Assembly: GCA_947623995.1 (NCBI GenBank)
Contig: CANQIN010000001.1
Coordinates: 1 to 57,072, forward strand
Direction of reading: 5' to 3'
DNA length: 57,072 nt
Source: an uncultured Bacilli bacterium
Lineage (GTDB): Bacteria; Bacillota_I; Bacilli_A; RF39; UBA660
In this document: positions 15,275 through 55,303 of the stretch, piece by piece
Layout: each line of letters begins with the position of its first letter
How positions within the stretch are numbered: the first letter of the stretch is position 1
Notes under the pieces: generated by a model
Database searches by the model: none
Told to the model about the DNA's origin: nothing
Seen by the model: only the letters and a program-made list of their open reading frames with translations
Translations under genes and position numbers: made by a program

Positions 15275-15309
15275 AAAAGGTAGTTAGAATTTACTTAAAA
15301 CTACCTTTT
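15275..15309 (-). terminator. Intrinsic (bidirectional-looking) terminator just after the primase-helicase gene
   Basis: 11-bp perfect stem AAAAGGTAGTT/AACTACCTTTT with a 13-nt loop and T-rich flanks, 25 nt downstream of the stop codon at 15334. Confidence 0.65.
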
Positions 15310-15333
15310 TATAAATAGATGTTGAAATATTAA

Positions 15334-17703: not shown

Positions 17704-17706
17704 GAG

Positions 17707-21750: not shown

Positions 21751-21869
21751 TATAATAACACCTACTAAAAGTATATCATGTAAATTATTTAATTTAAACT
21801 AAATTTATAGGTTTTTGCCCTATACAAAAAATAGACGAAAGACATAACTTACAAATGAGGAGGGTAAAT

Positions 21870-22316
21870 ATGTTATTTGATAATACTGATTTTAATTTTG
21901 ATGTTGGTTTTTTTAAAATTCCTGGTAGTGATTTTAATATTGAAACCAGAACTGATAAATTTTTAACGCCAGAAGAAGGTTTTATGAGAGGAAACTTAGA
22001 AAAAGGAAGTTTTATTCCATATAAACAATATACTTATTTTGAATTAAAAGCTGAAAATGAACAAGAAAGAATGCTTTTAAGATTAATGGCCTTATCATTT
22101 GCTATAAATGATTTAAATTTATATTTAGATTTACATCCAGAAGATATGGAAAACTTTCAATTATTTAAAAAATACGCTAATGAATTAAATAATTTAGAAT
22201 TAGATTATGTTAAAAAATATGGTCCTATTGTAGTTAATGAAACTGACGGTGAAATGTTTAATTGGGTGAAAAATCCTTGGCCATGGGATGATAAAGGAGG
22301 TAGTATGTATGTTTAA
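21870..22316 (+). CDS. cotJB: Spore coat protein CotJB with an N-terminal CotJA-like extension
   Basis: LLRLMALSFAINDLNLYLDLHPED...YVKKYGPI...WVKNPWPWD is the CotJB signature. The N-terminal LTPEEGFMRGNLEKGSFIPYKQY resembles the CotJA C-terminal motif. Start set at the ATG at 21870, after GAGGAGGG. Confidence 0.75.
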   Translation: MLFDNTDFNFDVGFFKIPGSDFNIETRTDKFLTPEEGFMRGNLEKGSFIPYKQYTYFELKAENEQERMLLRLMALSFAINDLNLYLDLHPEDMENFQLFKKYANELNNLELDYVKKYGPIVVNETDGEMFNWVKNPWPWDDKGGSMYV

Positions 22317-22866
22317 ATATGTTAAGCACTTAAATTATCCAATCAATATTAAAAAGAAAGATTTAAAAATGGCTAAATGTTTAATTACACAATTTGGTGG
22401 TTCTAATGGCGAGCTTGCTGCCAGTCTAAGATATTTTTCCCAAAAATTTTCAATGCCTGATGAAAAAGGAAAAGCCTTATTAAATGATATTGCAACTGAA
22501 GAATTAGGTCATTGTGAAATGATTTGTACAATGGTTAGTCAGTTAACTAAAGACGCTACTGTAGCTGAATTAAAAGCTGCGGGATTAGAAAATATTTATG
22601 CTGAACATGGTAAAGGAATTTATCCAACAGATGCTTCAGGTGTACCTTTTACCGCAACTTATTTTGCTGTTACCGGAGATGTCATAGCTGACCTTTATGA
22701 AGATATGGCTGCTGAACAAAAAGCTAGAGCTGTCTATGAAAACTTAATTGACTTAACTAATGATGAAGATGTCTTAGGTGTCTTGTTATTTTTAAGACAA
22801 AGAGAAGTTGTTCACTTTAATCGTTTCAAAGAATTAAAAGATTACTATAAGAAAAAAGGCTATTAG
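22309..22866 (+). CDS. cotJC: Spore coat protein CotJC (manganese-catalase family)
   Basis: KHLNYPINIKKKDLKMAKCLITQFGGSNGELAASLRYFSQ...ELGHCEMI is the typical CotJC/Mn-catalase pattern. Start at the ATG at 22309, 9 nt after AAAGGAGG. 8-nt overlap with cotJB. Confidence 0.88.
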   Translation: MFKYVKHLNYPINIKKKDLKMAKCLITQFGGSNGELAASLRYFSQKFSMPDEKGKALLNDIATEELGHCEMICTMVSQLTKDATVAELKAAGLENIYAEHGKGIYPTDASGVPFTATYFAVTGDVIADLYEDMAAEQKARAVYENLIDLTNDEDVLGVLLFLRQREVVHFNRFKELKDYYKKKGY

Positions 22867-40058: not shown

Positions 40059-41081
40059 TTATTTAAAGATATTAAATAATTTACCATTTTTATCATTATC
40101 TTCTTTATTAAATCCCATTTTTTGTAATAAATATTCTAATTCTACATGATTATCCAATTTATCATCTAAATAAGGAATATTAAAATATACTTTACTATTA
40201 GATTCATTTTCAAAATCTTCAACATCATTATTATCTAATACACTTCTATTTAAAATAATTTTATTGCCTTTTAATTTATCAAATATTTGAGGATCTTTTC
40301 TAATTAATTTATTTAACTTAATTAAACCCGGTTCAATTAAATACAAAACATCAGTACAATAATCAATTGCCCCTTCTTCATTTAAATCAATTAATATTAC
40401 ATCACAATTATAATGAGTTGAAATAAATTTTTGCAATTCAAAATGATTAGTATTCATTAAAGTTCGATCATTTAAATAAATAAAATCATTATTATCAACT
40501 TCAACTGCAACGACTTTATAGTTTTTTTCTAATTGTTTTTTTAATAAATATGTTAATGTCGTACTACCAGCATGCTCAGTAACATTTTTTAAACCAATTA
40601 TTTTTACAGAATTAGTTCCAACATAATTTTTTTCTTCTTTAACTTTTTTTTCTTTTTTAGTTGAATGAATATTTTCTTCACTAGCTGTACCCATCATCAT
40701 ATTTAATTGATGATACTGGGCAACATCTTTATAAGTATTAGGATTATCAATTAAAAACTTAACCGCATCTATATTTCTTGTAAAATTATAAATTCCCATT
40801 GATACCAAAGCAGATAAATACTTAGGATCATTTACTAATTCAGAATCATCTAATAATATAATTACTTTACTCATATCCATATTAACAGATAATTCTTGAA
40901 TTACAGAAATATTTTCATAATCTTTAATAGCAGTAATATCTAAAATCATTTTATTATAAAAGAAATTATTAAATTGCGCTATTAATTCTTCAGGTGTATA
41001 TACACCTGAAATACTTTTAATAATATCTATATCAATATTATTTAATAATGATTCGTACTTATTCACAACTTTAACATTCAT
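40059..41081 (-). CDS. TadZ/CpaE-like protein: receiver-like N-domain plus ParA/MinD-fold domain with a degenerate P-loop
   Basis: N-terminal ~125 aa has a CheY-like alternation (KVIILLDD...). The C-terminal VKIIGLKNVTEHAGSTTLTYLLKKQL...VVAVEVD...VILIDLN follows the ParA layout but lacks GKT. Start at the ATG at 41081, 8 nt after AAGGAG. Confidence 0.45.
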   Translation of the reverse strand: MNVKVVNKYESLLNNIDIDIIKSISGVYTPEELIAQFNNFFYNKMILDITAIKDYENISVIQELSVNMDMSKVIILLDDSELVNDPKYLSALVSMGIYNFTRNIDAVKFLIDNPNTYKDVAQYHQLNMMMGTASEENIHSTKKEKKVKEEKNYVGTNSVKIIGLKNVTEHAGSTTLTYLLKKQLEKNYKVVAVEVDNNDFIYLNDRTLMNTNHFELQKFISTHYNCDVILIDLNEEGAIDYCTDVLYLIEPGLIKLNKLIRKDPQIFDKLKGNKIILNRSVLDNNDVEDFENESNSKVYFNIPYLDDKLDNHVELEYLLQKMGFNKEDNDKNGKLFNIFK

Positions 41082-41093
41082 TATATTCACTCC

Positions 41094-41582
41094 TTATTGT
41101 AATTTATATTCTAATCTATCAACCGGAAAATTAATATCAATAGTTTCACCAGTAACTTCAAATGTTAAAATTTCTCCTATAACTGGTAAATTAAATTTGT
41201 AAAAAAATTTAACTGAATACTTCGTACGATTAGTTAAATTACCTTGTCTAGTACTTTTTTTACTAATACAATAGTAATATTTTTCCCTTTTATTTACTAC
41301 TTTTTCTAATGTAAATGAAGATAAATTCCTAGAACCATAATCTCCTTCTTGACAATAATGCATAGTATTATAATTATTATATGATAAATAATTATTTATC
41401 AATTGAATTGAACCATTATTTCCATCTTTTAATCCTTCATATTTTTCTATAAAAGTTAAAGCTTCATTTTTAATTTTAAAAACTTTATTGTAACTTATTG
41501 TTAAAGATAAGAAAGACACAAAAATTAACATAAATGTTACAACTAATCCAATTAACCATACACTACCAGTTGACGTTCTCAT
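41094..41582 (-). CDS. Pseudopilin (TadE/TadF-like minor pilin) candidate
   Basis: MRTSTGSVWLIGLVVTFMLIFVSFLSL: a short polar leader ending in G, then a ~22-aa hydrophobic helix, then a ~130-aa globular part. Confidence 0.45.
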   Translation of the reverse strand: MRTSTGSVWLIGLVVTFMLIFVSFLSLTISYNKVFKIKNEALTFIEKYEGLKDGNNGSIQLINNYLSYNNYNTMHYCQEGDYGSRNLSSFTLEKVVNKREKYYYCISKKSTRQGNLTNRTKYSVKFFYKFNLPVIGEILTFEVTGETIDINFPVDRLEYKLQ

Positions 41583-41588
41583 CCTTAA

Positions 41589-42098
41589 TCACCCCTTATT
41601 TGTATAGATAGGTTTAGTATCTCCTTTAATTCTAAAATTAAATAAATCATGAAATATTGGCAAATCTAATTGATAAAATACCACAACTCTATAATATGCT
41701 ACTGAAGGTAATTCACTAGCAAAATCACCATTTGATCCTATACCTCCACTATCAATTTTAGCAATACAAAATGCAGCATTTTTTTGATTTACCTTACCAT
41801 CTCTACTAAAACCATAATACGTATAATTATCTTCTAAACTTAATACATCACAATTACCAGTAGTTCGATATGCACTATCTATTAAATAAGATGAAATAGC
41901 ACATAATGTTCCTGTAGTATCACTTCCACATTCTGCAGTTAAATTTATTCCGTTATTACTTTGAATCGTTTGAATTATTCTATCTTTAACATTAAATGCT
42001 TTGGACTGATTAATAGTTAAACACATAAAACCAGCAAAGAGTAATACAAAAACAATTACAATTTGAAATAACCATGTACCCCCTATTGCTTCTCTCAT
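41589..42098 (-). CDS. Pseudopilin (TadE/TadF-like minor pilin) candidate
   Basis: MREAIGGTWLFQIVIVFVLLFAGFMCL has the same leader architecture. The globular part contains 4 Cys. Confidence 0.45.
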   Translation of the reverse strand: MREAIGGTWLFQIVIVFVLLFAGFMCLTINQSKAFNVKDRIIQTIQSNNGINLTAECGSDTTGTLCAISSYLIDSAYRTTGNCDVLSLEDNYTYYGFSRDGKVNQKNAAFCIAKIDSGGIGSNGDFASELPSVAYYRVVVFYQLDLPIFHDLFNFRIKGDTKPIYTNKG

Positions 42099-42116
42099 TT
42101 AAATACCCCTTTTCTA

Positions 42117-42347
42117 TTAACCTTTCCAAACGCATTTAAAATAAGTATTTTGACCTGGCATATGACAGTCAACCTCTTGACAATTATTTGTCTCACACTT
42201 ATTACAAATTGCTTTTGAACAATTAGTATTTTGATTCATATTATTTCTAATCATTGGCCAGATAGTAAAATAGAAAAAGGCAGCTAAGCCTGCTATAGCC
42301 ACAAGTACGACTACTGACATATTTAATTCTCCAGTTGCCTCTTTCAC
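42117..42347 (-). CDS. Short Flp-like pilin paralogue 3 (76 aa, GTG start)
   Basis: (GTG)MKEATGELNMSVVVLVAIAGLAAFFYFTIWP followed by a 6-Cys C-terminal tail. AAGGAGG RBS lies 6-7 nt upstream. Confidence 0.6.
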   Translation of the reverse strand: MKEATGELNMSVVVLVAIAGLAAFFYFTIWPMIRNNMNQNTNCSKAICNKCETNNCQEVDCHMPGQNTYFKCVWKG

Positions 42348-42362
42348 ACTTTTACCTCCTTT

Positions 42363-42599
42363 TTATTTTGTCTCTACATTAGTTCCTTCACAATTTATAG
42401 TAGTTTCATTTCCATTTTGATCTAAAGCCTTACATACTGTACGTTCTTTATTACATTGATACGCTGAAGCACATAATGTTTGACGATTCAAATTATTTTT
42501 AATTGCTGGCCAAATAAACGCATAAAAGAATGCTGCTATTGCTGCTATTGCCACAACAGTTATTACTGTAATATTTAATTCACCTGTCGCTTCTTTCAT
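42363..42599 (-). CDS. Short Flp-like pilin paralogue 2 (78 aa)
   Basis: MKEATGELNITVITVVAIAAIAAFFYAFIWPAIKNNLNRQTLCASAY followed by a divergent 4-Cys tail. Start moved to the ATG at 42599; the ORF-track extension reads through the paralogue-1 stop region. Confidence 0.6.
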   Translation of the reverse strand: MKEATGELNITVITVVAIAAIAAFFYAFIWPAIKNNLNRQTLCASAYQCNKERTVCKALDQNGNETTINCEGTNVETK

Positions 42600-42843
42600 A
42601 ATTAGTTTCCCCTTACTTAACTCCTGTATCTTGTGGCGTGCACTGAACAGAAGTTGGATTTCCATTTTGATCTAAAGCATCACATAAGGTCCCATTACAG
42701 TGATAAGCAGATGCACATAATGTTTGACGATTTAAATTATTTTTAATTGCTGGCCAAATAAATGCATAAAAGAATGCTGCTATTGCTGCTATTGCTACTA
42801 CAGTTATTACCGTAATATTTAATTCACCTGTAGCTTCCTTCAT
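42456..42843. repeat. Tandem duplication (period 244 nt) covering the 5' halves of pilin paralogues 1 and 2
   Basis: 42700-42843 aligns with 42456-42599 with roughly ten substitutions by hand alignment. All are synonymous, since the encoded 47-48 aa are identical. Confidence 0.85.
42613..42843 (-). CDS. Short Flp-like pilin paralogue 1 (76 aa)
   Basis: The first 47 aa are identical to paralogue 2, followed by a divergent 4-Cys tail. ATG at 42843 lies 7 nt after AAGGAGG. Confidence 0.6.
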   Translation of the reverse strand: MKEATGELNITVITVVAIAAIAAFFYAFIWPAIKNNLNRQTLCASAYHCNGTLCDALDQNGNPTSVQCTPQDTGVK

Positions 42844-42877
42844 TATTTTTACCTCCTTTAATCTTCTTACAATTATT

Positions 42878-42906
42878 ATTATAACTTTTTTAAATAAAAT
42901 TATCAA
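42878..42906 (-). promoter_or_regulatory. Strong promoter in front of the pilin genes
   Basis: Minus strand reads TTGATA (42906-42901), 17 nt, TATAAT (42883-42878), about 35 nt before the paralogue-1 ATG. Confidence 0.55.
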
Positions 42907-42938
42907 CTATTTAAGATTATTTAGTTTAAAATTAGACA

Positions 42939-45455
42939 TTATTGACGTTTAATAATTTTTCTATAGTATAAAATGAAAAGCAAAAAACTTATAATTGATA
43001 TAATAATTCCAAATTTTAAGCCTTTTATATGATACTTTAACTCTATTTTATGATTACCATCATCTACTGGAATAGAAATTATACCATTTAATATTTTATC
43101 ATAATTTACTTTTTTATTATCTATATTTATTTCAAAACTATTATCATATGGTACTGTAATTATTAATAAATCATTATCATTTGCTGTAAAATCACCAGTA
43201 AATCCAGTTGATAATATTCTAAGATTTTCAATTTTTTTAGTGTTTAATTCACTAATTAAATTTTTGAAATCATTTTCTTTAACATATTCTAAAGCTTCAT
43301 TACCTTTTTCACTATATATTGCATTAAAATCGGGAGTTAAATTTATTTCTATCTTAAATTTATCGCCTTTTTTTAAATTATATATACTATCAACTTTTTC
43401 TTCGTTAACCATTAAATTATAGATTTCTTCTCCACTTTTCTTTTTAATTATTACATTGTTTTCTACTTCAAAGAAAAAGTTTTCCACATTCATATTAATT
43501 TTAGCAACAATATCATTTGGTATATCATAAGTAAATATTACTTTACCAGGTAAACTTTTATCATGAAGAACATATGTATTTTCTTTTTCGTCAATATTTT
43601 CAAAACTTTTTTGAGGATTTAAATATTTAATTTGCAAATCATATTTTTTATTAGTTAACAGATTTAATATATCAATAATATCATTATCACTATATTTTAA
43701 TTGTTCTTCATTTTGATTATTAACAATAAATCCCAAACTTTTAATATAATATTTATTTTCTAAAAAGGATATTTTTGATGAATTAAAAGTATAATTTCTA
43801 ATTACATATTTTAAACCTAATAGGGCATCCATTAAAAAATTATTAGAATAACTTATAACAGAATTATGATGATATTCTGGTCTATAATCTTTTAAAAAAG
43901 TAGTCAAATTATTATTATATATTGATGCAAATCTATTAACTCCATAATAATCGAATAATAATCCATCATTATTAGTTACCTTAGAATTCATTCTAAAAAA
44001 ATTATCATCTTCTTTAAGAACGTTAATTAAATTATCAATATTTTTTATATTTTGTTGATATTCACCAACTGATACATAATTATAATTACTTCCTTGATAA
44101 TTAATATTGATATCCATTATTAAATTAATAGATAACTCAATAATAACTAAAAAATAAGTAATTAAATCAAATTTTGATTTGTGATAAGTAAAAATATAAT
44201 AAATTAAAAAGCAATTACTCAATACTAATAACCAAATATATATTTTTTCAAAGCTAAAACTTAAATAAATATAATTTTTGTATGTAAAAAAAGCTAAAAA
44301 ATATACTATTAATGCAACTAATATTATTATTTTGTTTTTTAACTTAATATTAATTTTTTCAATATCAAAATTATAAGCAATTAAAATCCAAAATGCATTA
44401 AAGCAAAAAACAAAGCGGCCTGGAAATCCAATTGGCTTTTGAAAAAGGTGCCAAGTGTAATAACCAATATTAGTTATTAATGATAATAAATAAATTACTC
44501 CAATAATATATATTGATTTTTTTAATTTTAAATTTTTTTTCTTATCACTTAAATGTAATAAAATAATTACTAAAACAAATAAAGATAAGTATATTGGCGC
44601 GCTGCAATTTGTAGTAACACTCTCACTAGCATAATTACTACCAATAATAAAATTGTATAAAGATCCAATTCCATCTTTATTAAAACCCAAATAATTCATA
44701 CTATTATAATAAATTATTCTTCCAGAAAAAAGACTATTAATAGTTGGTATTAATATAACAGCTGAACTTAATCCACATAATAAACTAGTTAAAAAAAATC
44801 TTATAGTTCTTTGCTTTTTTTCTTTTTTATTTAATGTTGAATTATATAATAAAAAGAAAAAATAAATTACTGAAAATAAACATATCATGTAAGCCGTGTA
44901 ATAATGAATAAATATCATATATGTTAAAGTGATAAAATACATTAAATTTTTATTATCATTAACTATTTTATCTATAGCAATCATTACTAGCGGTAACATA
45001 TAAACAGAATCTAAAAATTGATAATTATGATAATATAAGCTAACAAATCCAGATAAAGCATAAATTGTTGAAAAAATTATCGTTTTACTATTTATGCATT
45101 TTTTATAGTTTAATAATATATTCATTGTTAAACCTGAAAAACCAATTTTAATAAAAAGCAAAATGACATAAAATAAATCAAAGTTTTCCTTTTTAAATAG
45201 AAAATAAAGTAAATTTAAAGGATTGCACAAATATGTTGTAAAAATCGGATAAAAATTTTCTCCTAAGCCAATATTAAAAGTAAAAATATTAAAGTTTTTT
45301 AAACCTTCAAAAAAAGCTGGATACTGTGAAAATGAATCCGATGTTCTAATAGAAAGATTACCAAATGGATAAACATTCATGCTATACATTGCAAAACAAA
45401 ATATCAAAATTGGCAAAATAAAAGCAATTAAATAATGAATTATATTTTTTTTCAT
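42939..45455 (-). CDS. yfhO: YfhO-family polytopic membrane glycosyltransferase
   Basis: 838 aa. The N-terminus (VYPFGNLSIRTSDSFSQYPAFFEGL...LCNPLNLLYFLF) is typical of YfhO. More than 12 TM helices plus a large C-terminal extracytoplasmic domain and a terminal TM helix. Confidence 0.8.
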   Translation of the reverse strand: MKKNIIHYLIAFILPILIFCFAMYSMNVYPFGNLSIRTSDSFSQYPAFFEGLKNFNIFTFNIGLGENFYPIFTTYLCNPLNLLYFLFKKENFDLFYVILLFIKIGFSGLTMNILLNYKKCINSKTIIFSTIYALSGFVSLYYHNYQFLDSVYMLPLVMIAIDKIVNDNKNLMYFITLTYMIFIHYYTAYMICLFSVIYFFFLLYNSTLNKKEKKQRTIRFFLTSLLCGLSSAVILIPTINSLFSGRIIYYNSMNYLGFNKDGIGSLYNFIIGSNYASESVTTNCSAPIYLSLFVLVIILLHLSDKKKNLKLKKSIYIIGVIYLLSLITNIGYYTWHLFQKPIGFPGRFVFCFNAFWILIAYNFDIEKINIKLKNKIIILVALIVYFLAFFTYKNYIYLSFSFEKIYIWLLVLSNCFLIYYIFTYHKSKFDLITYFLVIIELSINLIMDININYQGSNYNYVSVGEYQQNIKNIDNLINVLKEDDNFFRMNSKVTNNDGLLFDYYGVNRFASIYNNNLTTFLKDYRPEYHHNSVISYSNNFLMDALLGLKYVIRNYTFNSSKISFLENKYYIKSLGFIVNNQNEEQLKYSDNDIIDILNLLTNKKYDLQIKYLNPQKSFENIDEKENTYVLHDKSLPGKVIFTYDIPNDIVAKINMNVENFFFEVENNVIIKKKSGEEIYNLMVNEEKVDSIYNLKKGDKFKIEINLTPDFNAIYSEKGNEALEYVKENDFKNLISELNTKKIENLRILSTGFTGDFTANDNDLLIITVPYDNSFEINIDNKKVNYDKILNGIISIPVDDGNHKIELKYHIKGLKFGIIISIISFLLFILYYRKIIKRQ

Positions 45456-46417
45456 AATTTATCAGCTTCTTTCTCGTCTATATCACTTTCTTTTACAATA
45501 TATAATGGTCTATTTTTAGTTTCTAAATATATTTTAGAAATATATGCTGAACAAATACCTAAACAAAATAATTGAATACCAGAAACAAAGAAAATAATAC
45601 ACACCAATGATGGCCAACCACTTACTGGATCACCAAATATTATAGTTTTAAATATTATAACTAAAATTAGTATAAATGATATAAAACAAAATAATATTCC
45701 TAAAAATGTTGATATCATTAATGGCACCGTAGAAAATCCAATTATTGCATCGAAAGCATATAATAATAATTTCCCAAAACTCCATTTAGTTTCTCCAGCA
45801 ACTCTTTTAACATTATCAAATGATATCCATTTAGTTTTAAATCCTAAATAACTAAACAATCCTTTAGAATAACGATTATATTCTGGCATTGATAATATAG
45901 CATCCACTACTTGCCTAGTCATTAATCGAAAATCTCTTTCTCTAGAATCAACTTTAACTTTACTAATTTTAGTAATTAATTTATAAAACATTTCAGCAAA
46001 AAAACTTTTAATTACAGGTTCTCCTTTCCTGTTTTTTCTTCTAGCAATAACAATATCATAATTGGTTTCTTTAATTTCATTATACATGTCAATTAATAAT
46101 TTCGGAGGATGTTGTAAATCAGCATCCATTAAAGCTACTAAATCACCACTTGCTTTTTTTAGTCCAGCATATATTGCAGCTTCTTTACCAAAATTTTTAG
46201 AAAAAGATATATAATGAATAAAATTATTATTATTTTTTATTTTTTTTATTACATTTAATGTATTATCATTACTCCCATCATCAACAAATATTAATTCAAG
46301 ATTTATATTTTCTTTTAAAAATATTTCTTGAATGTTATTTATCTCTTTATAAAATAAAGGTAAGCATTCTTCTTCATTTAAACATGGTACTATAATTGAT
46401 AAAACTTTCTTTTTCAT
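45452..46417 (-). CDS. GT2 polyprenyl-phosphate glycosyltransferase (GtrB/CsbB/ArnC-like)
   Basis: LSIIVPCLNEE, VDDGSNDNT, FGKEAAIYAGL, LMDADLQHPP, two C-terminal TM helices. 4-nt overlap with the yfhO start. Confidence 0.85.
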   Translation of the reverse strand: MKKKVLSIIVPCLNEEECLPLFYKEINNIQEIFLKENINLELIFVDDGSNDNTLNVIKKIKNNNNFIHYISFSKNFGKEAAIYAGLKKASGDLVALMDADLQHPPKLLIDMYNEIKETNYDIVIARRKNRKGEPVIKSFFAEMFYKLITKISKVKVDSRERDFRLMTRQVVDAILSMPEYNRYSKGLFSYLGFKTKWISFDNVKRVAGETKWSFGKLLLYAFDAIIGFSTVPLMISTFLGILFCFISFILILVIIFKTIIFGDPVSGWPSLVCIIFFVSGIQLFCLGICSAYISKIYLETKNRPLYIVKESDIDEKEADKL

Positions 46418-46463
46418 AAATACTCCTAACTATTTATATTCTATCAAATATTTATAAGAAATT

Positions 46464-46490
46464 AAATAAAAAAGATAACCTAAGTTATCT
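46464..46490 (-). terminator. Intrinsic terminator immediately after the TadC-like gene
   Basis: Minus strand reads tAGATAAC-ttag-GTTATCT followed by TTTTTATTT. The stem begins inside the TAG stop codon. Confidence 0.55.
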
Positions 46491-47277
46491 ACATATTCAT
46501 CATCATTAATAATGCAAAAATTAATAATACCATTACTCCTAATCCTGTTGCTATTAACATTTGCATTGTTTTCTTTTCCATTTTCTCTAAACGTTCTTTA
46601 TATTTTAACTCTCTTGCTTTTTGTTGCAAATTAGATATTGTTTTAGAAAACGCTAATAATTGTTCTTGTTTATGTTCTTGTCTACCTAATGATAAACGAT
46701 ATAATAAACGCATCATTCTCATTGAATCTCTTACTGGATATGTTTTAGCAAATGTCATATATGGATTTATTGAACTATCACCAGCATTAACTTCATCAAT
46801 TAATTGTTGTAAACCTTCTTTAAAAATACTAGGTGCATCATTAATTGATTTACCTAAAGCTACAGGAACAGTATAATGTTGAATTAATATTTCTAAACTT
46901 TTTAAGTAATGAGGTAACATTGCATCAATATCATGTAAATGTCTTTTATAATAATTCTTAATATTCATATAATCTAATTTAAATACTAAAAAACCAGCTA
47001 TAAAAGCAAATAATACGGTAATATATGTTAAATTTGAAATAAAGAAACAAAGCATAATCACAATAATTATTAAACCATTTTTAATTCTTTTATTAAATAG
47101 AAAATCGGCATTAGCTGAATCTCCATATTTAGCTTTTACATAAAAATCCCAATCATTTTCTTTTAATCTTTGAAATAAAGTTTCATTATCTGAAACAAAA
47201 CGACTAACACTTATTCTTCCCGTATAATTAAGAACAAATAATATTATAAGTGCTAAGGCAATAATCTCGAAATACAT
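46489..47277 (-). CDS. TadC-like platform protein (single T2SS-F domain)
   Basis: N-terminal TM helix, two central TM helices, a cytoplasmic helical domain (LPHYLKSLEILIQHYTVPVALGKSI...IFKEGLQQLIDEVNAGDS...) and a C-terminal TM helix. This is GspF/TadC-type topology. Confidence 0.55.
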   Translation of the reverse strand: MYFEIIALALIILFVLNYTGRISVSRFVSDNETLFQRLKENDWDFYVKAKYGDSANADFLFNKRIKNGLIIIVIMLCFFISNLTYITVLFAFIAGFLVFKLDYMNIKNYYKRHLHDIDAMLPHYLKSLEILIQHYTVPVALGKSINDAPSIFKEGLQQLIDEVNAGDSSINPYMTFAKTYPVRDSMRMMRLLYRLSLGRQEHKQEQLLAFSKTISNLQQKARELKYKERLEKMEKKTMQMLIATGLGVMVLLIFALLMMMNM

Positions 47278-48173
47278 TATTCCACCCCCACATCTTCATA
47301 ATAGAATCTTTCACCTTTATAAAGAAAGAAACAATTTATCCAAATTATACAATGAAGTATTAATTGAACATACCACATATCTAATAATTTAATATATGAA
47401 TCTGTACCTAGCAAAAATTGCATAGCCATAACTAATAAGAACAATGCTAAACCAAATGTAATAAATCTTTTATGAAAATCTGCTCTATCTATTTGATCAC
47501 GATAAACACCTTCAACTAAAGAATCTATATCCATAGCCATATTTTCTAAAGCTTCGCCTGAATCTTTAGCACCTTCTTTAGTTATTTGTAAAAATAATTG
47601 ATGCATATTTTTAACCATATAATATGGATACTTTTCATTAAAAAATTCAATAGATTCATCAATTGTACCATTTTGATAAGACATATCTATCATAGTTCTT
47701 AAATCTGTCAAAACTGGATCTTCAATAATTCCTGAATCTCTAACTCCTTCTAAGGATTTAACAAAACTTTGAGTTGTATTAAATTCCATTATAACATTAG
47801 TTGTATATGTTTGTATTTGTTCAAAAATATACTCAGAATAAGCTTTTTGACATCTTAAATACGCTAAAAATGGAATAAATAAAACCGCAACTCCAGCATA
47901 TATTACAGTAATTATAATGTTATAGAAATATAAATACGATATACCGCCTGCAACACCTGCAAATAGCACAACTTGTGTTATATATTGTCTTGGAGTATAT
48001 TCTTGCCCTAATTCTTTAACTTTTTCTCTAACTTGTTTGAAACTGTAAGGAGCATATTTATCATATGCATTTGCTACACTTTTAGCAAAAAAGTTATAAA
48101 CATTCTCGCCATTATTCATATAATATGAAATTGCAAAGATAGCAAGTACAATTAATATTACTAACTCAATCAT
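47277..48173 (-). CDS. TadB-like platform protein (single T2SS-F domain)
   Basis: Same topology class as the previous gene. 1-nt overlap with the downstream gene. It follows the secretion ATPase directly, as in tadA-tadB-tadC. Confidence 0.5.
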   Translation of the reverse strand: MIELVILIVLAIFAISYYMNNGENVYNFFAKSVANAYDKYAPYSFKQVREKVKELGQEYTPRQYITQVVLFAGVAGGISYLYFYNIIITVIYAGVAVLFIPFLAYLRCQKAYSEYIFEQIQTYTTNVIMEFNTTQSFVKSLEGVRDSGIIEDPVLTDLRTMIDMSYQNGTIDESIEFFNEKYPYYMVKNMHQLFLQITKEGAKDSGEALENMAMDIDSLVEGVYRDQIDRADFHKRFITFGLALFLLVMAMQFLLGTDSYIKLLDMWYVQLILHCIIWINCFFLYKGERFYYEDVGVE

Positions 48174-48187
48174 ATTCTCCCTTCTTT

Positions 48188-49309
48188 CTACAATGTTTCT
48201 ACTAAATTTGAATTATTACTTACTACTTGATTAGGAGTATTATTCAAATTCTTATTTGGATCAAATATATCTTCTGGTAAAGTAACACCTGAAATACTTA
48301 AATATTCTCTTAGATGATTAGTAGGATTATTCATCGTAATCTCACCAGTCAAAGTTTTTTGAAATATTGTATTTACTTGTGGCTTATTTTGCTCATCAAC
48401 AAAAAATTCACAAATTTCCATAATTTCACGTTGAAATCTACCTAATTCTTTACTCATATAACCTTTAACATATATACCTAACTGAACATAACGATGAATA
48501 GTTGATAAAAATTGTTCAACATCAACATTACTTTCAATTAAAGCAAACATACGCATCGGTATTAAACTTGCTTTATCAGAGTGAATAGTTGATAAAATAT
48601 GGTGCCCAGAAGATATAGAGTTACGAACAGCCATAACAGCCTCTGCACTACGGACCTCGGAAAGTAATATCCATATTGGATTTTGTCGCATACATGTTAC
48701 CAATACATCACTATAACTAGCGATATTATTAGTTTTCATCGCAATTATATCACGATGAGGAAAAATACGATCTAAATGAAGTTCTAGTGTATCCTCAATA
48801 GTTATTATTTTTTCATTTTCTTTTGTATGAGACGCTAAATACTTAACTAACTCTGTTTTACCTGAACCGGTTTCTCCACTAACAATAATATTAGCATGAC
48901 CTTCTACACATTTAAGCAAAAAATCAAGTAAATTTGCCGAAATATATTGTTCATTAATAAGTTTTTCACGATTTAACCTAATTTTAGCTGGTGTCTTTCT
49001 TATTTGACATGCTATACCGTTAGTGGCAATCGAATCATGAACAAAATTTAAACGTAACTCTGCACTCTCAGCATCCAAAAAGGGATGAGCCATATTAAAT
49101 GTCTTTCCCATAACATTAGCACATTGGAATGCCAATTTTTCTAGCAAAGCATTGTTTATATCCGGTCTATCTACTTGATATACACCTTTATCTAAAGATT
49201 TTAACCACACTTGTCCATTATTACATATTGAAATATCGGTAACATTTTCTTCTCTTAAGAATTCATCAATAGGCCCAAAATCAAGTTGAGAAAATATTGC
49301 ATCATTCAT
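48188..49309 (-). CDS. TadA/CpaF-family secretion ATPase (VirB11-like, type II/IV secretion system protein E superfamily)
   Basis: Walker A IIVSGETGSGKTE, Asp box ITIEDTLEL, Walker B WILLSEVR, His box STIHS. About 370 aa with no N-terminal GspE N1 domain. Confidence 0.8.
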   Translation of the reverse strand: MNDAIFSQLDFGPIDEFLREENVTDISICNNGQVWLKSLDKGVYQVDRPDINNALLEKLAFQCANVMGKTFNMAHPFLDAESAELRLNFVHDSIATNGIACQIRKTPAKIRLNREKLINEQYISANLLDFLLKCVEGHANIIVSGETGSGKTELVKYLASHTKENEKIITIEDTLELHLDRIFPHRDIIAMKTNNIASYSDVLVTCMRQNPIWILLSEVRSAEAVMAVRNSISSGHHILSTIHSDKASLIPMRMFALIESNVDVEQFLSTIHRYVQLGIYVKGYMSKELGRFQREIMEICEFFVDEQNKPQVNTIFQKTLTGEITMNNPTNHLREYLSISGVTLPEDIFDPNKNLNNTPNQVVSNNSNLVETL

Positions 49310-49338
49310 GAATTCACCCCAATTCTCTTATTCTTTTT

Positions 49339-50208
<870 letters not shown>

Positions 50209-50227
50209 TTTTATTCCTCCTTAAATT

Positions 50228-50632
50228 TTAATTAGAATCAAGTTCTAACATTGCATCTACTCTATTAACTATATCAAATGTTTCTGCTCCAGAATTTAAT
50301 TGATATGTATTACTCTTAGTTGTTACTTGGACACTTGCCTTTGGTGGAGATTCATATATTCCATAAAAATCTACTTGATAGGTACTTAATGAAACATTTT
50401 CGGCAAATCGTCTTAAAAAATTCTCTACAAATTTTTCACGATTTATTCTTAACTCTCCACTTTCTCGGTAGTAACCATAGTCGACTGCATCGACCATGGC
50501 TGCCTCCGAAATTTCCTTTAATATGTAATAATCTTGAGTATTTGTTGCTGATACATTTGATATTAACATCATTACTACTATTACAAATACTCCTAATGCT
50601 ATTAACCAATATCCCCAATATGCTTCTTTCAT
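50228..50632 (-). CDS. Pseudopilin-like membrane-anchored protein
   Basis: MKEAYWGYWLIALGVFVIVVMMLISNV has the same M-K-E-A leader class as the pilins, followed by a ~100-aa globular part. Confidence 0.4.
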   Translation of the reverse strand: MKEAYWGYWLIALGVFVIVVMMLISNVSATNTQDYYILKEISEAAMVDAVDYGYYRESGELRINREKFVENFLRRFAENVSLSTYQVDFYGIYESPPKASVQVTTKSNTYQLNSGAETFDIVNRVDAMLELDSN

Positions 50633-50644
50633 TTTTTTATCCTC

Positions 50645-53600
50645 CTACTTCCATGATGGCCCTATTCCATCTTCACGACTTAAAACACAATTACCATTAG
50701 TAATACAATATGACGAATCTAACCATAAAGTAAATTTTGTAGTTTCTTCTCTTGGTTTTAATGAAGTAAAATACTTATTAGTTGTATTATTTAAGAAGGT
50801 ACTTATACATTTTACACTATACGTAATACCATTATAAGTTACTTGTTCACATTGTAATGCATTATTACTATTTAATTCGCCATTACCAAATTCATAACTT
50901 TCAGGCATTGTAGTATTAGAATATGATCCAGCATCCTTATTAAATTGTCTTATAGCACTTAATTGAGCAGGCGTTAATGTATATGAATATTCTGCATTTT
51001 CATATATTGTATCTCCAGCATCCTCAATTTGAGATTTAGTATATTCTGCTTTAACTGTACTCCAATTATACCCCTCTTTACGACAATCAATTGAATTTCC
51101 ATCTTCACATAAATTAGGGAATAGACTATTTAATGAAACAGTACGATATTTAAATGAAGTATTTTCTCCATCAAATATACAATTCTTACAAGTATCTGCA
51201 TCTTTAGTAATAATACAATCATCACCATTACATGATACATCACACTCAGGACAATTATTTACATAAGCACATACATATCCCGTATCTTGACTTAATATAC
51301 CATTATTTTCATTATATTTAGTACATTTTTTTCCATCAGGTAATTTATCATACTCAGTTAAAACACTTACCTGATCTTTTACACCAACTAAACGTCCTAA
51401 TTCACCAGTTTGATTAGACTGTCCAATTTTACTAAATTTCAAAGTAAATGGAAATGCCCCTTTACCAGTTTTAAGCTCTACTGGTAAAGCAGTATCTGGA
51501 AGTCTAGTCCATAAGCAGTCTTTATAAGTAGGATCATTAGAATTCTCACATATAGTTCCAGTTTTAACAGTTCCATATTGATGATATGTGCTAAAGTTTT
51601 GACTTGGAGTATAATAAGCATCTTTTGTTACTGTTTTTTGAATCCATTTAGCTAAACTTAATTTAAATGTATTTGCACTACACCCAGTATTGTTACATGT
51701 AACCGATACAGCATTTTTAAATATATTATCAGGTAATGTATTCTCATTAACTTCAAATTTTTTACTACTATCAACACAATTATATTGTTCATCAGTCTCG
51801 CCTAAACAATAAATATTATCTATTTTAGTATTTACATCACCGACTCTTGAAAATTTACCAGTACCAGATTCTCCATTAAGAAGTTCACTGTAATTATTAT
51901 ATTCAAAACTTATTTCTGGATCAAAATTCATATTATTTTCCCATGTTGAACATTTCTTAAAGGCAGCAACAGAATCAATTACTTGTTGATTAGTTTTTTG
52001 ATATTCTTCTAAGAATTTATTTTTAAATCCTTCAATCTCAGTCTTAGAGATATTAGCTTCAACAGTTTCAGTTGATGTAGTATTTTTAGAATAATCATAA
52101 ACTACATATGTCCAAGTAAATGCTTTTTTAACATTATTTTCTTCATTTGAAATACTTTTAACTGCACTACTTTCAAATAATGTATTCCATTTATTCCATT
52201 CATTCCAATCAGCTGCTAAATCACGATTTAAACTATTTAATTCAGATTCAAATCCTTCAACATCAATTGGTTTATCTGGATTAGTTGCTGAGCTAATATA
52301 ACAATTTCTTGTTCCCGTAATTTTAGTTGATAATGTAAAGTATCCACCACTCATTGAATATCTTGCCGTTGGTACAACAAATTGATAATTTTCATCACAC
52401 CATACTTTACAATATTTATTATTATTAATTTCTGTAGTTGCCTCATATGAAGCATTAGTTTGATCTACTGAATCAATAACGCATCTCTTAACTGGATTAA
52501 CACTACTATTACAATCAGTTTTTTCTAAGTTTATGTCACTAATCGAACCATCCACATTATTATTAGTATCAAAATCATTACATGTACCAGGAACCGAAAC
52601 ACTAGCATTACAATTTGGACATTTTTCTTCATATTCATCACACGCTGGATCATCAGGATCTTCTTCACATGTTTCTTTTAATGTAGGACAATAACATTCA
52701 TCTAAATATTCACTTTCACTACATTCTTCTCCACCTTTATTAGGTTCTTTTTCTTTACAATAATATTTATTTTCATCATTTTCTTCAGGTGTTTCACATA
52801 TATGTAAACATTCTTTATGATATTTATCTTCATTACATACTTCACCATCCTGGCAATAATAAGTTGGTTTACCAGTATTATCATAATCGATATCACAAGA
52901 AGAATTTGCATTTTCACATTTATCTGGGCATTTTAATTCTATTACCCTTGGATCATCTTTTTTAATAATTTGTGAAGTGGTTACATCGTCTACAGTTTCA
53001 TAATAAATATAATCTCCAGTAAATTTTCCGTCTTTTTCTTCACATAAACATTGATCAGATTCATAATTGACAGGAATTTCAGTTTGAATAATATATGAAT
53101 TATTAAAATCTTTAACCAATAACATTTTTTGATGATATGATTGACCAATACTTGGTGTCAATAACATTAAATATGCAGCTGGATTTCTTTGATCAACATA
53201 AGCAGTAGTTACTTTTAATCCATATTTTTGATTTTTTGTTTTACTTGATTCACCATTTGATGTATCTATTTCAACAACATAACGACCTCTATTATCAGAT
53301 ACTTTCTTTTTTGATAAAACGTTACAAGTAAAGCCATACTCACATGTTATATCAAATTTTTTCCATTTTACACTTTCTGGTGCTTTACCAACTTTAGGAG
53401 TTACGTCAAATTTCAAAGTAACAATATTTCCTTCAACTTTGCTGTTAACTAAAATGAAATCCCATTCATCAGTCCATATTGTACCATCATTAACCAAATC
53501 TTCATAAGTTGCAGTTTTATTTTGTATTTTATTTCCATATTTTACAGCATTTGTTGAAATTCTTTGCGCAGCTCTAACATATCTATTATTTTGATTCCAA

Positions 53601-54142
53601 TAAGAAGAATTTTTACGATTATCTTTAGTACTTGTATAAACATATGGATAATTTAATGACGTTACCCCACCAGTATCAAGTTTACCGTAATAATACTCTA
53701 ACCATCTAAAAGTCAAAATACCTACAACTCTACTTTCAGTTGTTGGATTAGCTTTAATTATACCTTCATTTACCATTTGTTGATATGCAACTGTAGCTGC
53801 AACATCAAAAGCTTGATTTGAGCCTTTCTTTTGAGGTGTAATAGTCCTTTCACATATATGAGTTCCATTATTTCTATATGCATTTTTACCAGGAGACATA
53901 CAGAATGTTTGACCATAAGCATTTCTTGTAGTTTTAGATGTAAAAACATCATAAAAGTTTATTCCTCTTCCAGTTTCATTATTGCTACCCACATATCTCA
54001 AATAAAATGTTCCAACGGGACACTTATTGCCTGAACCATTACTAGCCTTAGTAACATTAAAATAAACATCAGCAGCACTAGCATTAATGCTAAGTACTGT
54101 AAATAATATTAAAGCAAACAATATTTTTTTCATTTTTTTCAT
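50645..54142 (-). CDS. 1165-aa secreted Cys-rich protein (candidate pilus-associated adhesin)
   Basis: Sec signal MKKMKKILFALILFTVLSINASA/AD. The central ~200 aa contain roughly 25 Cys in an acidic CxxC/CxC-rich stretch, and there is a second Cys cluster near the C-terminus. No LPxTG motif and no C-terminal TM helix. Confidence 0.6.
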   Translation of the reverse strand: MKKMKKILFALILFTVLSINASAADVYFNVTKASNGSGNKCPVGTFYLRYVGSNNETGRGINFYDVFTSKTTRNAYGQTFCMSPGKNAYRNNGTHICERTITPQKKGSNQAFDVAATVAYQQMVNEGIIKANPTTESRVVGILTFRWLEYYYGKLDTGGVTSLNYPYVYTSTKDNRKNSSYWNQNNRYVRAAQRISTNAVKYGNKIQNKTATYEDLVNDGTIWTDEWDFILVNSKVEGNIVTLKFDVTPKVGKAPESVKWKKFDITCEYGFTCNVLSKKKVSDNRGRYVVEIDTSNGESSKTKNQKYGLKVTTAYVDQRNPAAYLMLLTPSIGQSYHQKMLLVKDFNNSYIIQTEIPVNYESDQCLCEEKDGKFTGDYIYYETVDDVTTSQIIKKDDPRVIELKCPDKCENANSSCDIDYDNTGKPTYYCQDGEVCNEDKYHKECLHICETPEENDENKYYCKEKEPNKGGEECSESEYLDECYCPTLKETCEEDPDDPACDEYEEKCPNCNASVSVPGTCNDFDTNNNVDGSISDINLEKTDCNSSVNPVKRCVIDSVDQTNASYEATTEINNNKYCKVWCDENYQFVVPTARYSMSGGYFTLSTKITGTRNCYISSATNPDKPIDVEGFESELNSLNRDLAADWNEWNKWNTLFESSAVKSISNEENNVKKAFTWTYVVYDYSKNTTSTETVEANISKTEIEGFKNKFLEEYQKTNQQVIDSVAAFKKCSTWENNMNFDPEISFEYNNYSELLNGESGTGKFSRVGDVNTKIDNIYCLGETDEQYNCVDSSKKFEVNENTLPDNIFKNAVSVTCNNTGCSANTFKLSLAKWIQKTVTKDAYYTPSQNFSTYHQYGTVKTGTICENSNDPTYKDCLWTRLPDTALPVELKTGKGAFPFTLKFSKIGQSNQTGELGRLVGVKDQVSVLTEYDKLPDGKKCTKYNENNGILSQDTGYVCAYVNNCPECDVSCNGDDCIITKDADTCKNCIFDGENTSFKYRTVSLNSLFPNLCEDGNSIDCRKEGYNWSTVKAEYTKSQIEDAGDTIYENAEYSYTLTPAQLSAIRQFNKDAGSYSNTTMPESYEFGNGELNSNNALQCEQVTYNGITYSVKCISTFLNNTTNKYFTSLKPREETTKFTLWLDSSYCITNGNCVLSREDGIGPSWK

Positions 54143-54147
54143 TTTAA

Positions 54148-54888
54148 TTACCCCCTAATTTGTTTAATGTCATCGTTTCTTTGCTTTTTTTTGACAATTA
54201 ATATTGTAATTGCAACAATAATTATAATTACAATGATAATTCCAACAGTAAATAACACAAAACTTTGACTATTATTTTCATTTAATTCCAAATCATTGTT
54301 TTTATCATCATTATTTACGTTATTATTTAAATCTAACTCATCTTCATTAATAGGAGTTGTAATATATCTTTGACAATAATATGAATCATTATTATTACAC
54401 ACAGTTTGATCAGCTAGACTATTATACATTGGAGTTGTAACATTAATCGTTCTTAATTCTTGATTACCACATTCTGAAACATCTGAATAAATTGTTAAAG
54501 TATAATTTCTTATAGTGCTTAAATCCGGAACTTCGTAAGTAAAAGAACCATTTTTTAAATCTTGAAAATGATATTCTTTGTTAATACCATCATCATTATT
54601 ATAAAAAACAACATAAACTTTATCTGATACATTATTAACATTTATGATTGCCTTATCAATTAAACCATATTCTCCAAGTTCAGATAATTCAACATCTTCA
54701 GGCGCAATTTCAGGATGTATATTTCCATATGTATCAACCACTGAAGTTTCCAATGTATAATTCATTGTAACATTAGACGAAGCTGCATTAATTTCAAGTT
54801 GTGACTTATTATCACATTCTGCATTAACTTTGTCAAGAGAAAAAATCAAACTCAAAACAATAAATACATACATTTTAGCCTTTTTCAT
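54148..54888 (-). CDS. Type-I membrane protein (signal peptide + ~190-aa ectodomain + C-terminal TM anchor)
   Basis: MKKAKMYVFIVLSLIFSLDKVNA/E. C-terminal FVLFTVGIIIVIIIIVAITILIVKKKQR. It is the first gene of the locus, 5 nt upstream of the 1165-aa gene. Confidence 0.55.
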   Translation of the reverse strand: MKKAKMYVFIVLSLIFSLDKVNAECDNKSQLEINAASSNVTMNYTLETSVVDTYGNIHPEIAPEDVELSELGEYGLIDKAIINVNNVSDKVYVVFYNNDDGINKEYHFQDLKNGSFTYEVPDLSTIRNYTLTIYSDVSECGNQELRTINVTTPMYNSLADQTVCNNNDSYYCQRYITTPINEDELDLNNNVNNDDKNNDLELNENNSQSFVLFTVGIIIVIIIIVAITILIVKKKQRNDDIKQIRG

Positions 54889-55228: not shown

Positions 55229-55303
55229 GCAGGTGTGGTTCAGTGGCTAGAATGCGACCTTGCCAAGGTTGAGACGGGAGTTCGATTCTCCTCACTTGCT
55301 CCA
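55229..55303 (+). tRNA. tRNA-Gly (GCC), CCA encoded
   Basis: 75-nt cloverleaf: acceptor GCAGGTG/CACTTGC, anticodon arm CGACC-TTGCCAA-GGTTG, 4-nt variable loop, T-loop TTCGATT. Confidence 0.9.

Follow-up and report, generated by a model that had tools for sequence, protein, structure and literature searches.

The stretch of DNA analysed here, the whole 57,072-bp contig CANQIN010000001.1 of a metagenome-assembled genome (MAG) from an uncultured Bacilli bacterium, with 25% GC and called the window in what follows, contains fifteen tightly packed open reading frames (ORFs) whose products recall those of a type IV pilus, and the question raised by this locus is which kind of machine it encodes. 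A sequence-only reading had proposed a Tad-like (type IVc) pilus locus of accessory status. The ORFs, g1 to g15, are all on the minus strand between 54888 and 40059, with spacings of -4 to +92 nt, and are flanked by pcrA (37802-39889) downstream and tRNA-Gly (55229-55303) upstream, so that the gene list, co-orientation and borders given in that reading are correct at the level of the ORFs. The explanation we favour, with moderate confidence, is that the locus, chromosomal and inherited vertically, belongs to a branch of the type IV filament (T4F) superfamily that is specific to Firmicutes and has so far no classification, and that it deploys a giant adhesin. Its T4F composition is apparent in an ATPase, two T2SSF-like paralogs, a CpaB/SAF-like protein, a TadZ-fold protein and six pilin-like proteins. 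Since the ATPase lies outside the CpaF/TadA clade and no counterpart of Flp, TadE/F or TadV was found in the locus, the sequence data place it in a separate branch and not among bona fide Tad systems. Composition and gene order, which are also those of a monoderm Streptomyces Tad locus, thus stand from the earlier proposal, whereas Tad membership does not.

The conservation of the locus among relatives bears on the first part of this answer. A scan of one genome per species yielded at least 554 matching stretches; the best 80 were fetched and are the species-level loci counted here (81 with the window), and the 15 window proteins were mapped onto them by tblastn and hidden Markov model (HMM) searches. 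Wherever the contig allows, g1-g7 are kept in the same order (80 of 80 loci), and the recurrence of this order in those loci and in about 80 metagenome loci places the arrangement far beyond chance. The metagenome scan, done with the ATPase alignment, retrieved mostly the same gut clade, and ATPase homologs with 74-96% identity were found in MAGs assigned to uncultured gut 'Bacilli', 'Tenericutes', 'Mycoplasma sp. CAG:776', Ca. Ventrenecus and Ca. Onthocola. Across loci, the ATPase keeps a median identity of 83%, g6 one of 76% and g7 one of 74% (63-96% over the motor, 74-96% for the ATPase), and the exposed proteins diverge fast, with about 28% for g1 and g2 (about 22-30%) and 53% for g4. Because g1-g7 are kept in all 80 related loci, the locus is a vertically inherited chromosomal core feature and no accessory island. 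This conservation, together with the number of matching stretches, leaves the accessory status unsupported; an island at tRNA-Gly was rejected on the synteny conserved across relatives, and pcrA adjoins the locus in the closest relatives only. Few features seen in this large group of uncultured, host-associated Bacilli are as conserved as the motor (protein clusters at 90% identity number in the thousands), and all parts of the locus save the ATPase, the DUF5411 protein and two glycosyltransferases (GT2 and YfhO) carry the label 'hypothetical', which represents an annotation gap.

Which parts can then be recognised directly? The HMM check of all 15 proteins that the sequence-only reading had asked for was done against Pfam and NCBIfam, and the ATPase, g3, GT2 and YfhO were recognised, g4 only weakly, while g1, g2, g6, g7, g10-g12, g13, g14 and g15 matched no family in either library. 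Neither these libraries nor the PDB sequences lent support to the labels 'platform', 'pilin', 'pseudopilin' and 'TadZ-like', for which remote-homology and fold evidence was needed. Searching the PDB sequence set with homolog profiles of g4, g6, g7 and g15 gave nothing significant.

The second part of the answer concerns the motor. The product of g5 (48188..49309) is a 373-aa secretion ATPase of the VirB11/CpaF/FlaI branch, which matches T2SSE in Pfam (2e-25) and in which a Walker A (GETGSGKT), an Asp box, an atypical Walker B (LLSEVR) and a His box (GHHILSTIHS) can be read; from its sequence it is a predicted hexameric-type ATPase of the PilB/GspE/VirB11 superfamily. Its ranking in NCBIfam is headed by VirB11 (TIGR02788, 114 bits for a cutoff of 250), followed by TadA-conjugal (102), TrbB, FlaI and ComGA (1e-20), all far below cutoff, and in the PDB it matches VirB11, FlaI and CpaF alike at about 1e-16. 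The nearest plasmid matches are Firmicutes proteins annotated as 'CpaF/VirB11 family' (Priestia, 34% identity, 5e-50; pLS20 gene 37, 31%), with further relatives in Enterococcus, Lactococcus and pXO1/pXO2-type plasmids, compared with 6e-18 for proteobacterial CpaF and 1e-17 to 1e-19 for VirB11. In a bootstrapped neighbour-joining tree (15 taxa, 311 columns, GspE as outgroup, archaeal sequences left out), a Firmicutes clade with g5 and the plasmid ATPases, including pLS20 gene 37, had 63% support, CpaF/TadA 84% and VirB11 100%; grouping of the Firmicutes clade with CpaF (9%) or with VirB11 (25%) left the branching order of the three open. This coarse tree suggests that g5 lies outside both the CpaF/TadA and the VirB11 clades, in a clade specific to Firmicutes. 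The Tad membership that had been claimed for the ATPase is not supported by these distances, equal to CpaF, VirB11 and FlaI, and the phylogenetic placement that had been proposed as a check, carried out here without Archaea, groups the motor with conjugation-associated modules, the very outcome that the sequence-only reading had named as speaking against it.

These results bear directly on the possibility that the locus is a fast-evolving true Tad (type IVc) pilus, with g10-g12 as Flp-type major pilins of long adhesive pili, g3, g13 and g14 as TadE/F-type minor pilins, TadV encoded elsewhere and g1/g2 as unrelated neighbours or an extra adhesin, which we consider rather unlikely. Caulobacter Cpa, Aggregatibacter Tad and the Streptomyces plasmid locus (L091) share the order CpaB/SAF, (TadZ), ATPase, two platform genes, small pilin(s) and larger pilin-like genes; the order and content of the window locus are those of the Streptomyces one, its small pilin-like proteins are of Flp-like size, it likewise has a single ATPase and a TadZ-type protein combining a receiver and a ParA/MinD-fold domain with an atypical P-loop, and Tad systems are known in monoderms (PMC6668835; PMC12786226). 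This likeness is opposed by an ATPase that does not join CpaF/TadA and for which CpaF is no better a match than VirB11 or FlaI, by the divergence of the pilin-like proteins described below, by the embedding of related modules in type IV secretion system (T4SS) operons, and by the presence in this locus type of a universal DUF5411 protein, a giant Cys-rich protein and an anchored protein, the last two (g2 and g1) being linked to the motor more universally than the small pilins are.

The remaining machine parts were assigned with more distant evidence. The 298-aa polytopic membrane protein encoded by g6 (47277..48173) and the 262-aa membrane protein encoded by g7 (46489..47277) are candidate TadB-like and TadC-like platform subunits, respectively. 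No match was found for g6 in Pfam or the PDB; its profile matched a Priestia plasmid protein annotated as 'type II secretion system F family' (5.6e-15; hhalign 95.7%), which in turn matches Pfam T2SSF at 3.4e-5. An AlphaFold2 model of g6, made from a shallow alignment (76-95% identity), was all-helical with a pLDDT of 55, and the Foldseek result obtained with it was meaningless. For g7, 507 relatives were found by phmmer, and T2SSF was the sole recurring weak Pfam match among 37 diverse full-length ones (3 members, best 0.003); in a fused relative of ~535 aa the N-terminal half is T2SSF-like (0.0019). A diverse g7 profile aligned over the T2SSF domain with canonical TadB/TadC of Rhizobium and Streptomyces (hhalign 86%, E = 4.9e-6), the g7 and g6 families aligned with each other (57%, E = 1e-4), and the g7 profile matched pLS20 gene 39 at 8.5e-18. 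On the basis of the g7-TadB/TadC, g6-Priestia and g6-g7 profile matches, g6 and g7 are probably T2SSF-like paralogs in the split arrangement typical of Tad, by links that are remote and partly transitive, and the two half-size platform proteins of the sequence-only reading are retained on the same grounds.

The 289-aa bitopic product of g4 (49339..50208), with an acidic low-complexity tail, is CpaB/RcpC-like (SAF-type): its matches to RcpC (1.3e-4) and to TIGR03177 pilus_cpaB (3.3e-5) are subthreshold, and its family profile matched a Priestia SAF + RcpC protein (4e-32; hhalign 99.6%) and showed no similarity by hhalign to the Streptomyces SAF protein. The presence of CpaB in a monoderm had been considered unusual; SAF/CpaB proteins are also found in the Streptomyces and Priestia loci, and this point can be dropped. 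The last gene, g15 (40059..41090), encodes a protein of TadZ architecture (340-343 aa), in which a disordered linker joins an N-terminal receiver-like domain to a ParA/MinD-fold domain with a degenerate Walker A (GLKNVTEHAGSTT). It matched nothing in Pfam, NCBIfam or the PDB sequences; its AlphaFold2 model (pLDDT 75) shows two alpha/beta domains, and Foldseek aligned it with HypB, ParA, MinD and FlhG (E 4e-5 to 1e-3) and, over both domains, with the TadZ of E. rectale (3fkq; E = 2e-3, rank 25). At the level of the fold, the model points to a TadZ-type protein with a catalytically dead P-loop, in agreement with the TadZ-like protein with a degenerate P-loop that had been described. A homolog of g15 is also encoded in a MAG labelled [Clostridium] spiroforme. 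Standard Tad/T4F models of Pfam and NCBIfam thus fail to detect this branch's platform, TadZ-like and pilin components.

What would the motor act upon? Six proteins of four families (g3; g10-g12; g13; g14) have in common that a hydrophobic helix comes after a short leader, M[KR]E[AS]xG; such a leader, ending in Gly before the helix, corresponds, as far as topology goes, to a class III signal peptide. The 134-aa DUF5411 protein encoded by g3 (50228..50632; PF17424, 5e-55; N-terminus MKEAYWG/YWLIALGV, the slash marking the putative cleavage site) is the sole pilin-like protein encoded in all loci, its WGYW N-terminus is invariant, and pLS20 gene 36 and the DUF5411 protein of Priestia are among its homologs. 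The small pilin-like proteins g10 (42613..42846; 77 aa), its paralog g11 (42363..42602; 79 aa) and g12 (42117..42347; 76 aa, of the most widespread subtype, ending in C[VA]WKG) comprise, as in g10, the start MKEATG/ELN, a hydrophobic helix of ~22 residues and a Cys-rich C-terminal domain of ~45 aa. Nearly all copies across 37 loci begin with MKEA[TS]GELN, with one divergent copy (L030). The three genes form a tandem triplication (42117-42858, period 244-252 nt), and since g10 and g11 share 90% identity over their 5' 165 nt, a recent duplication or gene conversion between these two is suggested. The nearly conserved N-x-[ST] triplet (ELN[ITMA][TS]) of the small pilins lies right behind the putative cleavage site. 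A consensus-like promoter, TTGATA-17-TATAAT, is found at 42906-42878, just upstream of g10; a promoter and terminator scan of the window gave 141 sites for 131 expected, which at 25% GC is uninformative.

The larger pilin-like proteins g13 (41589..42098; 169 aa, MREAIG/GTWLFQ) and g14 (41094..41582; 162 aa, MRTSTG/SVWLIG) are paralogs (hhalign 100%, 2e-45). The N-terminus of the g13 family, M[RK]EAIG/GTW, is nearly invariant, and those of the g14 and DUF5411 families are MR[QE][AS]xG/xxW and M[KRQ][ES][SA]YWG/YW, respectively. There is a weak similarity of g13 to DUF4320/pLS20 gene 40 (22%, 1e-3) and of g14 to the DUF4320 set (40%, 3e-4). As had been described, the Flp motif G/XXXXEY, with Glu at +5, is absent on reading the pilin-like proteins; the small ones have no Flp or pilin family match in Pfam or NCBIfam, and the g3, g13, g14 and small-pilin families gave at most 4.4% probability by hhalign against a TadE/TadF/TadG set. 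With the TadE/F pseudopilins named in the sequence-only reading, the analogy is one of topology alone.

The lack of a TadV/FppA-type prepilin peptidase in the window was also borne out: no A24-type peptidase and no GxGDxK-type motif were found in it, the only small polytopic ORFs being g6 and g7, and no prepilin peptidase was found within 10 kb in the 80 related loci, one contig of this genome being covered. That this is unusual can be discounted, since the local absence of a peptidase is common in T4F loci (PMC6668835). Upstream of Priestia-type modules lies a conserved polytopic ORF of ~172-175 aa with a PGDTK motif (L081:1461-1979; L093:2030-2578), with no Pfam match and no homolog in the window (by tblastn) or in the first 80 loci, whose product could be a very divergent A24-like prepilin peptidase.

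Two other machines would also use a motor together with small proteins of this kind. If g10-g12 were Cys-rich anchored or released peptides, bacteriocin-like or of a signalling type, and the motor their dedicated exporter, their small size, tandem duplication, fast-evolving C-terminal domains and lack of pilin homology would be expected; this is highly improbable and was rejected, given the absence of bacteriocin-type leaders, immunity genes and ABC/peptidase exporters, the same N-terminal motif on g3, g13 and g14 (130-170 aa), the pilin topology of a hydrophobic helix right behind a short charged leader, and a gene position exactly that of the pilin genes in Tad operons. A competence-type pseudopilus for nutrient-DNA uptake in a reduced-genome gut bacterium seems to us just as implausible. 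A leader of 6-7 aa ending in Gly is closer to Com/T4a-type pilins than to Flp, the ATPase does match ComGA, and DNA uptake by T4F machines is known from other reduced-genome bacteria (PMC8513845); however, the ComGA score is well below those of VirB11, TadA and FlaI, the platform is split in two half-size proteins, unlike ComGB, no ComEA, ComEC or ComFA genes were found in or near the locus, and Com systems have nothing that corresponds to the giant surface protein or to the CpaB-like and TadZ-like parts, on which grounds this candidate was rejected too.

The closest described relatives of the motor come from plasmids. On a Priestia plasmid the genes encode, in order, an SLH protein, an Ig-like 993-aa protein, DUF5411, SAF/CpaB, a ParA-like protein, the ATPase, T2SSF, a g7-like protein and DUF4320. 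In pLS20 (L082, NC_015148.1), genes 36-40 (8422-11947) encode the DUF5411-like p36 (1.4e-5 against DUF5411), p37 or 'VirB11', p38, p39 and the DUF4320-like p40; p39 and p38 align with g7 (hhalign 96.9% and 76.9%, respectively), the thioester adhesin Tie is encoded upstream (gene 34), and VirD4 and a VirB6-like protein follow p40. The module of an E. faecium conjugative plasmid (L084, 6198-10056) has the order SpaA-like 1209-aa adhesin, weak DUF5411-like protein, ATPase, two membrane proteins, DUF4320 and TrbC/VirB2. Homologs of g6/g7 occur in the Priestia, pLS20, E. faecium and Lactococcus plasmids. These modules (genes 34-40 in pLS20) share with the window locus the ATPase clade (29-35% identity), an upstream DUF5411-like gene, two membrane proteins of ~250-300 aa homologous to g7/g6, a DUF4320-type protein and an adhesin gene upstream; sequence comparison thus indicates that pLS20 genes 36-40 and their enterococcal equivalents are homologous to g3, g5 and g6/g7, and weakly to g13/g14. 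Given these neighbours, the plasmid 'VirB11' sits in a T4F-like module beside an adhesin gene. Grouped in this way, as a description and with no curated family behind it, the window locus belongs by sequence to a DUF5411-associated CpaF/VirB11 module of Firmicutes. In the literature on pLS20, p37 is VirB11 and p36 and p38-40 are of unknown function, the plasmid family also encodes VirB4 and VirB6 homologs, and Gram-positive elements are said to form no conjugative pili (PMC8557374); our literature search found no paper tying pLS20 to Tad or T4F and none mentioning DUF4320.

These neighbourhoods made us consider whether the module works within a Gram-positive T4SS, with g5 as the VirB11 of a VirB4/VirB6/VirB2-like channel encoded elsewhere and the pilin-like proteins as channel accessories, serving DNA or protein transfer and not a filament. 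The best NCBIfam match of g5 is indeed VirB11, and its nearest annotated homologs are in the conjugation operons of pLS20 and E. faecium, beside VirD4 and TrbC/VirB2. In sister lineages such genes, of the type found in integrative and conjugative elements (ICEs) of Gram-positives and Mollicutes (Mbov_0395-0397, CD1110 VirB4, pLS20_p028 VirB6-like), come immediately downstream of the TadZ-like gene, whose product is 63% identical to g15 (L174:11086-21020; L025:15481-20260): a T4SS_pilin-like protein, several secreted proteins ending in a T4SS_pilin-like domain with two transmembrane (TM) segments, further on an 810-aa pLS20_p028/Mbov_0396-type (VirB6-like) protein with PrgI- and TraC-like pieces, a VirB4-like ATPase (Mbov_0397 family, 5e-103) split into three ORFs and a SpoIID-domain protein. 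This extension is present in ~17 genome loci and in many metagenome loci. Furthermore, in ~26 loci g10-g15 are replaced by a single gene, between g7 and addB/addA, for a 115-147-aa two-TM protein with a Cys-rich tail (e.g., L049:12872-13258, L034:12877-13299; motif IDLGKAVVASKDDEIKK); in view of its subthreshold matches to PF18895 T4SS_pilin (3.9e-5 to 1.9e-3), a VirB2-like pilin gene would here lie right behind a T4F-type motor.

The window locus differs from these arrangements in being chromosomal, core and away from any T4SS neighbour, whereas those of pLS20 and E. faecium are embedded in conjugation operons. None of the fifteen genes matches the VirB4, VirB6, VirD4 or relaxase families, the ATPase being the only, ambiguous, T4SS-defining component; no VirD4 or relaxase was found in the 57-kb window, nor any homolog of the VirB4-, VirB6-, PrgI- and T4SS_pilin-like proteins of L174. 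A window ORF (7673-9244) considered as a homolog of an L025 downstream gene was rejected for want of tblastn support. In many lineages housekeeping genes (addAB, ackA, pcrA) directly follow the motor, which is retained and highly conserved also where T4SS genes are not adjacent, and T2SSF-like, CpaB-like and TadZ-like proteins are T4F parts unknown in VirB/D4 machines. We regard a role in a T4SS as unlikely, and, with no T4SS gene in the window, the link to these systems is only indirectly relevant to this genome.

Two surface proteins are encoded at the start of the locus. In the 246-aa product of g1 (54148..54888), a Sec signal peptide precedes an ectodomain of ~180 aa, which a linker rich in Asn and Asp connects to a C-terminal TM anchor with a basic tail; homologs of g1 (median identity of 28%) lie upstream of g2 in 68 of the 80 loci. 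The secreted Cys-rich protein encoded by g2 (50645..54142; 1165 aa) has a Sec signal peptide and is a putative adhesin or cargo. Its homologs have 900-1500 aa and a Sec signal peptide, and 67 of them have 25-70 Cys and a C-terminal GP[SA]W[KR] motif; no Pfam domain was found in the window protein or in seven diverse homologs. Conservation is confined to the C-terminal ~650 aa, the N-terminal ~450 aa being variable, the pattern that a putative surface adhesin with a conserved docking part could show. Its connection with the motor comes from universal adjacency and from the recurrence, at the same position of the plasmid modules, of large adhesins unrelated to it in sequence: Tie in pLS20, SpaA-like in E. 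faecium, Ig-like and SLH in Priestia and BspA leucine-rich repeat in Lactococcus; in Clostridia an internalin-like protein is encoded in the same operon (PMC9523054). Going by these sequences, the motor module is always paired with a large surface protein in the lineages compared. Both g1 and g2 are universal core parts, which the sequence-only reading had underrated. In some relatives, a 221-aa surface protein with a sortase-type signal (SPKTG, TM, basic tail) is encoded upstream of g1 (L049:3529-4194), and in L075 (13188-18312) a second cassette of DUF5411, g1-like and g2-like (1218 aa) genes downstream of g7 represents a duplicated adhesin cassette.

The following mechanism may be proposed for the adhesin-deploying T4F branch that we favour. 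The g5 ATPase would turn the g6/g7 platform, so that pilin-like proteins are extracted from the membrane, after a leader cleavage behind the conserved Gly that is assumed to be made by a peptidase encoded elsewhere, and form a short filament or pseudopilus that crosses the cell wall. The CpaB-like g4 could be a wall-spanning collar and g15 a positioning factor or non-catalytic scaffold. The filament would carry or push out the Sec-exported g2, whose C-terminal half would dock while the variable N-terminal part binds the target, with g1 as a membrane-anchored partner, and the outcome would be an organelle for adhesion or cell contact. If so, the locus offers a concrete candidate for the attachment of reduced-genome gut bacteria to hosts or partner cells.

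Several facts weigh against this explanation. Neither a filament nor processing nor adhesion is on record for any member of this family. The ATPase tree has few taxa, no Archaea and deep nodes that are not resolved; the T2SSF assignment is based on remote profile-profile scores and transitive links, and the AlphaFold2 model of g6 is too poor to serve as a test; g2 is tied to the motor by its position alone; and the window, as said, has no T4SS gene that would tie it to the plasmid relatives. Given the absence of Glu+5, of homology to known pilins and of a peptidase nearby, the pilin-like proteins could be uncleaved membrane proteins. In addition, g10-g15 directly follow g7 in 37 loci and are absent beside the motor in about half of them, which makes the composition of the filament uncertain.

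A broader proposal, which we put forward tentatively and hold to be clearly less probable than the affiliation to a T4F branch, is that the module of DUF5411, ATPase and two T2SSF-like proteins is a distinct T4F family that arose within, or was fused to, the Gram-positive T4SS, with non-canonical pilins processed by an unfamiliar enzyme or not at all and a filament that deploys large adhesins. If this were true, pLS20-type plasmids would have a pilus-like mating device, contrary to the current view, and gut Bacilli would have domesticated it as a core, stand-alone organelle for attachment to hosts or partners, tipped by a novel giant Cys-rich adhesin. The suggestion that a Gram-positive 'VirB11' works with a GspF-like platform and pilin-like proteins bears on mating contacts without known pili, and the homology with pLS20 genes 36-40 connects the locus to Bacillus subtilis.

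Such a system has been seen before only computationally and in other taxa. A predicted 'secretion-related' operon of Roseburia, Ruminococcus and Eubacterium (Miller et al., 2022; PMC9523054), likened here by its described gene content, encodes a CpaF-type ATPase, a PilC/GspF-like protein, DUF5411 and a large cell-invasion/adhesin-like protein. It differs from the window locus in its host class, Clostridia, in its internalin-like cargo and in that no MKEATGELN pilins or TadZ-like protein were reported. What is new here is the affiliation of a T4F-type locus to Gram-positive conjugation machinery.

Two genes of the locus seem foreign to this machine. The product of g8 (45452..46417) is a GT2 polyprenyl-phosphate glycosyltransferase of the PgfS/CsbB/GtrB type (PF00535, 1.6e-33; best NCBIfam match PgfS, 2.9e-91, below cutoff), and that of g9 (42939..45455) a PgfM1/M2-like GT-C glycosyltransferase of the YfhO family (PF09586, 6e-126; PgfM2 1.5e-56 and PgfM1 5e-54, both below cutoff). 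As this pair, located between g7 and the pilin genes, is present only in the window, L003 and L035 (3 of 81 loci), it is a recent lineage-specific insertion and no integral part; of the glycosylation pair and giant Cys-rich protein that had been noticed as embedded in the locus, only the latter, present in all loci, belongs to the core. The Pgf proteins of S. mutans (PgfS/PgfM1/PgfM2) and the CsbB-YfhO teichoic-acid pairs likewise have a GT2 sugar synthase beside a YfhO GT-C transferase, whereas the scores of the window pair are far below the equivalog cutoffs; by analogy, it may glycosylate wall polymers or the surface proteins encoded by g1-g15.

Regarding the host, the organism is probably a walled, sporulating Firmicute, since CotJB/CotJC, a polysaccharide deacetylase and YfhO are encoded in the window; the CotJB and CotJC (Mn-catalase family) spore-coat pair is at 21855-22866, and MAGs of this lineage are often labelled Tenericutes or Mycoplasma. 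Elsewhere in the window, two ORFs (7673-9244, 523 aa; 26449-28167, 572 aa) encode proteins that match no Pfam family and start with a TM or signal anchor, and a LigD-like protein (343-1746) combines a 3'-phosphoesterase (PF13298, 6e-39) and a primase-polymerase (PF21686, 1e-80) domain, with no ligase domain in the same ORF. Finally, a probable defence islet at 14089-19073, next to tRNA-Asn (13669-13744), comprises a DUF4268 protein, an archaeo-eukaryotic primase (AEP-primase)/helicase of a TOTE conflict system (PF22548, 3e-82), an AbiEii toxin (6e-16) and a 183-aa putative antitoxin.

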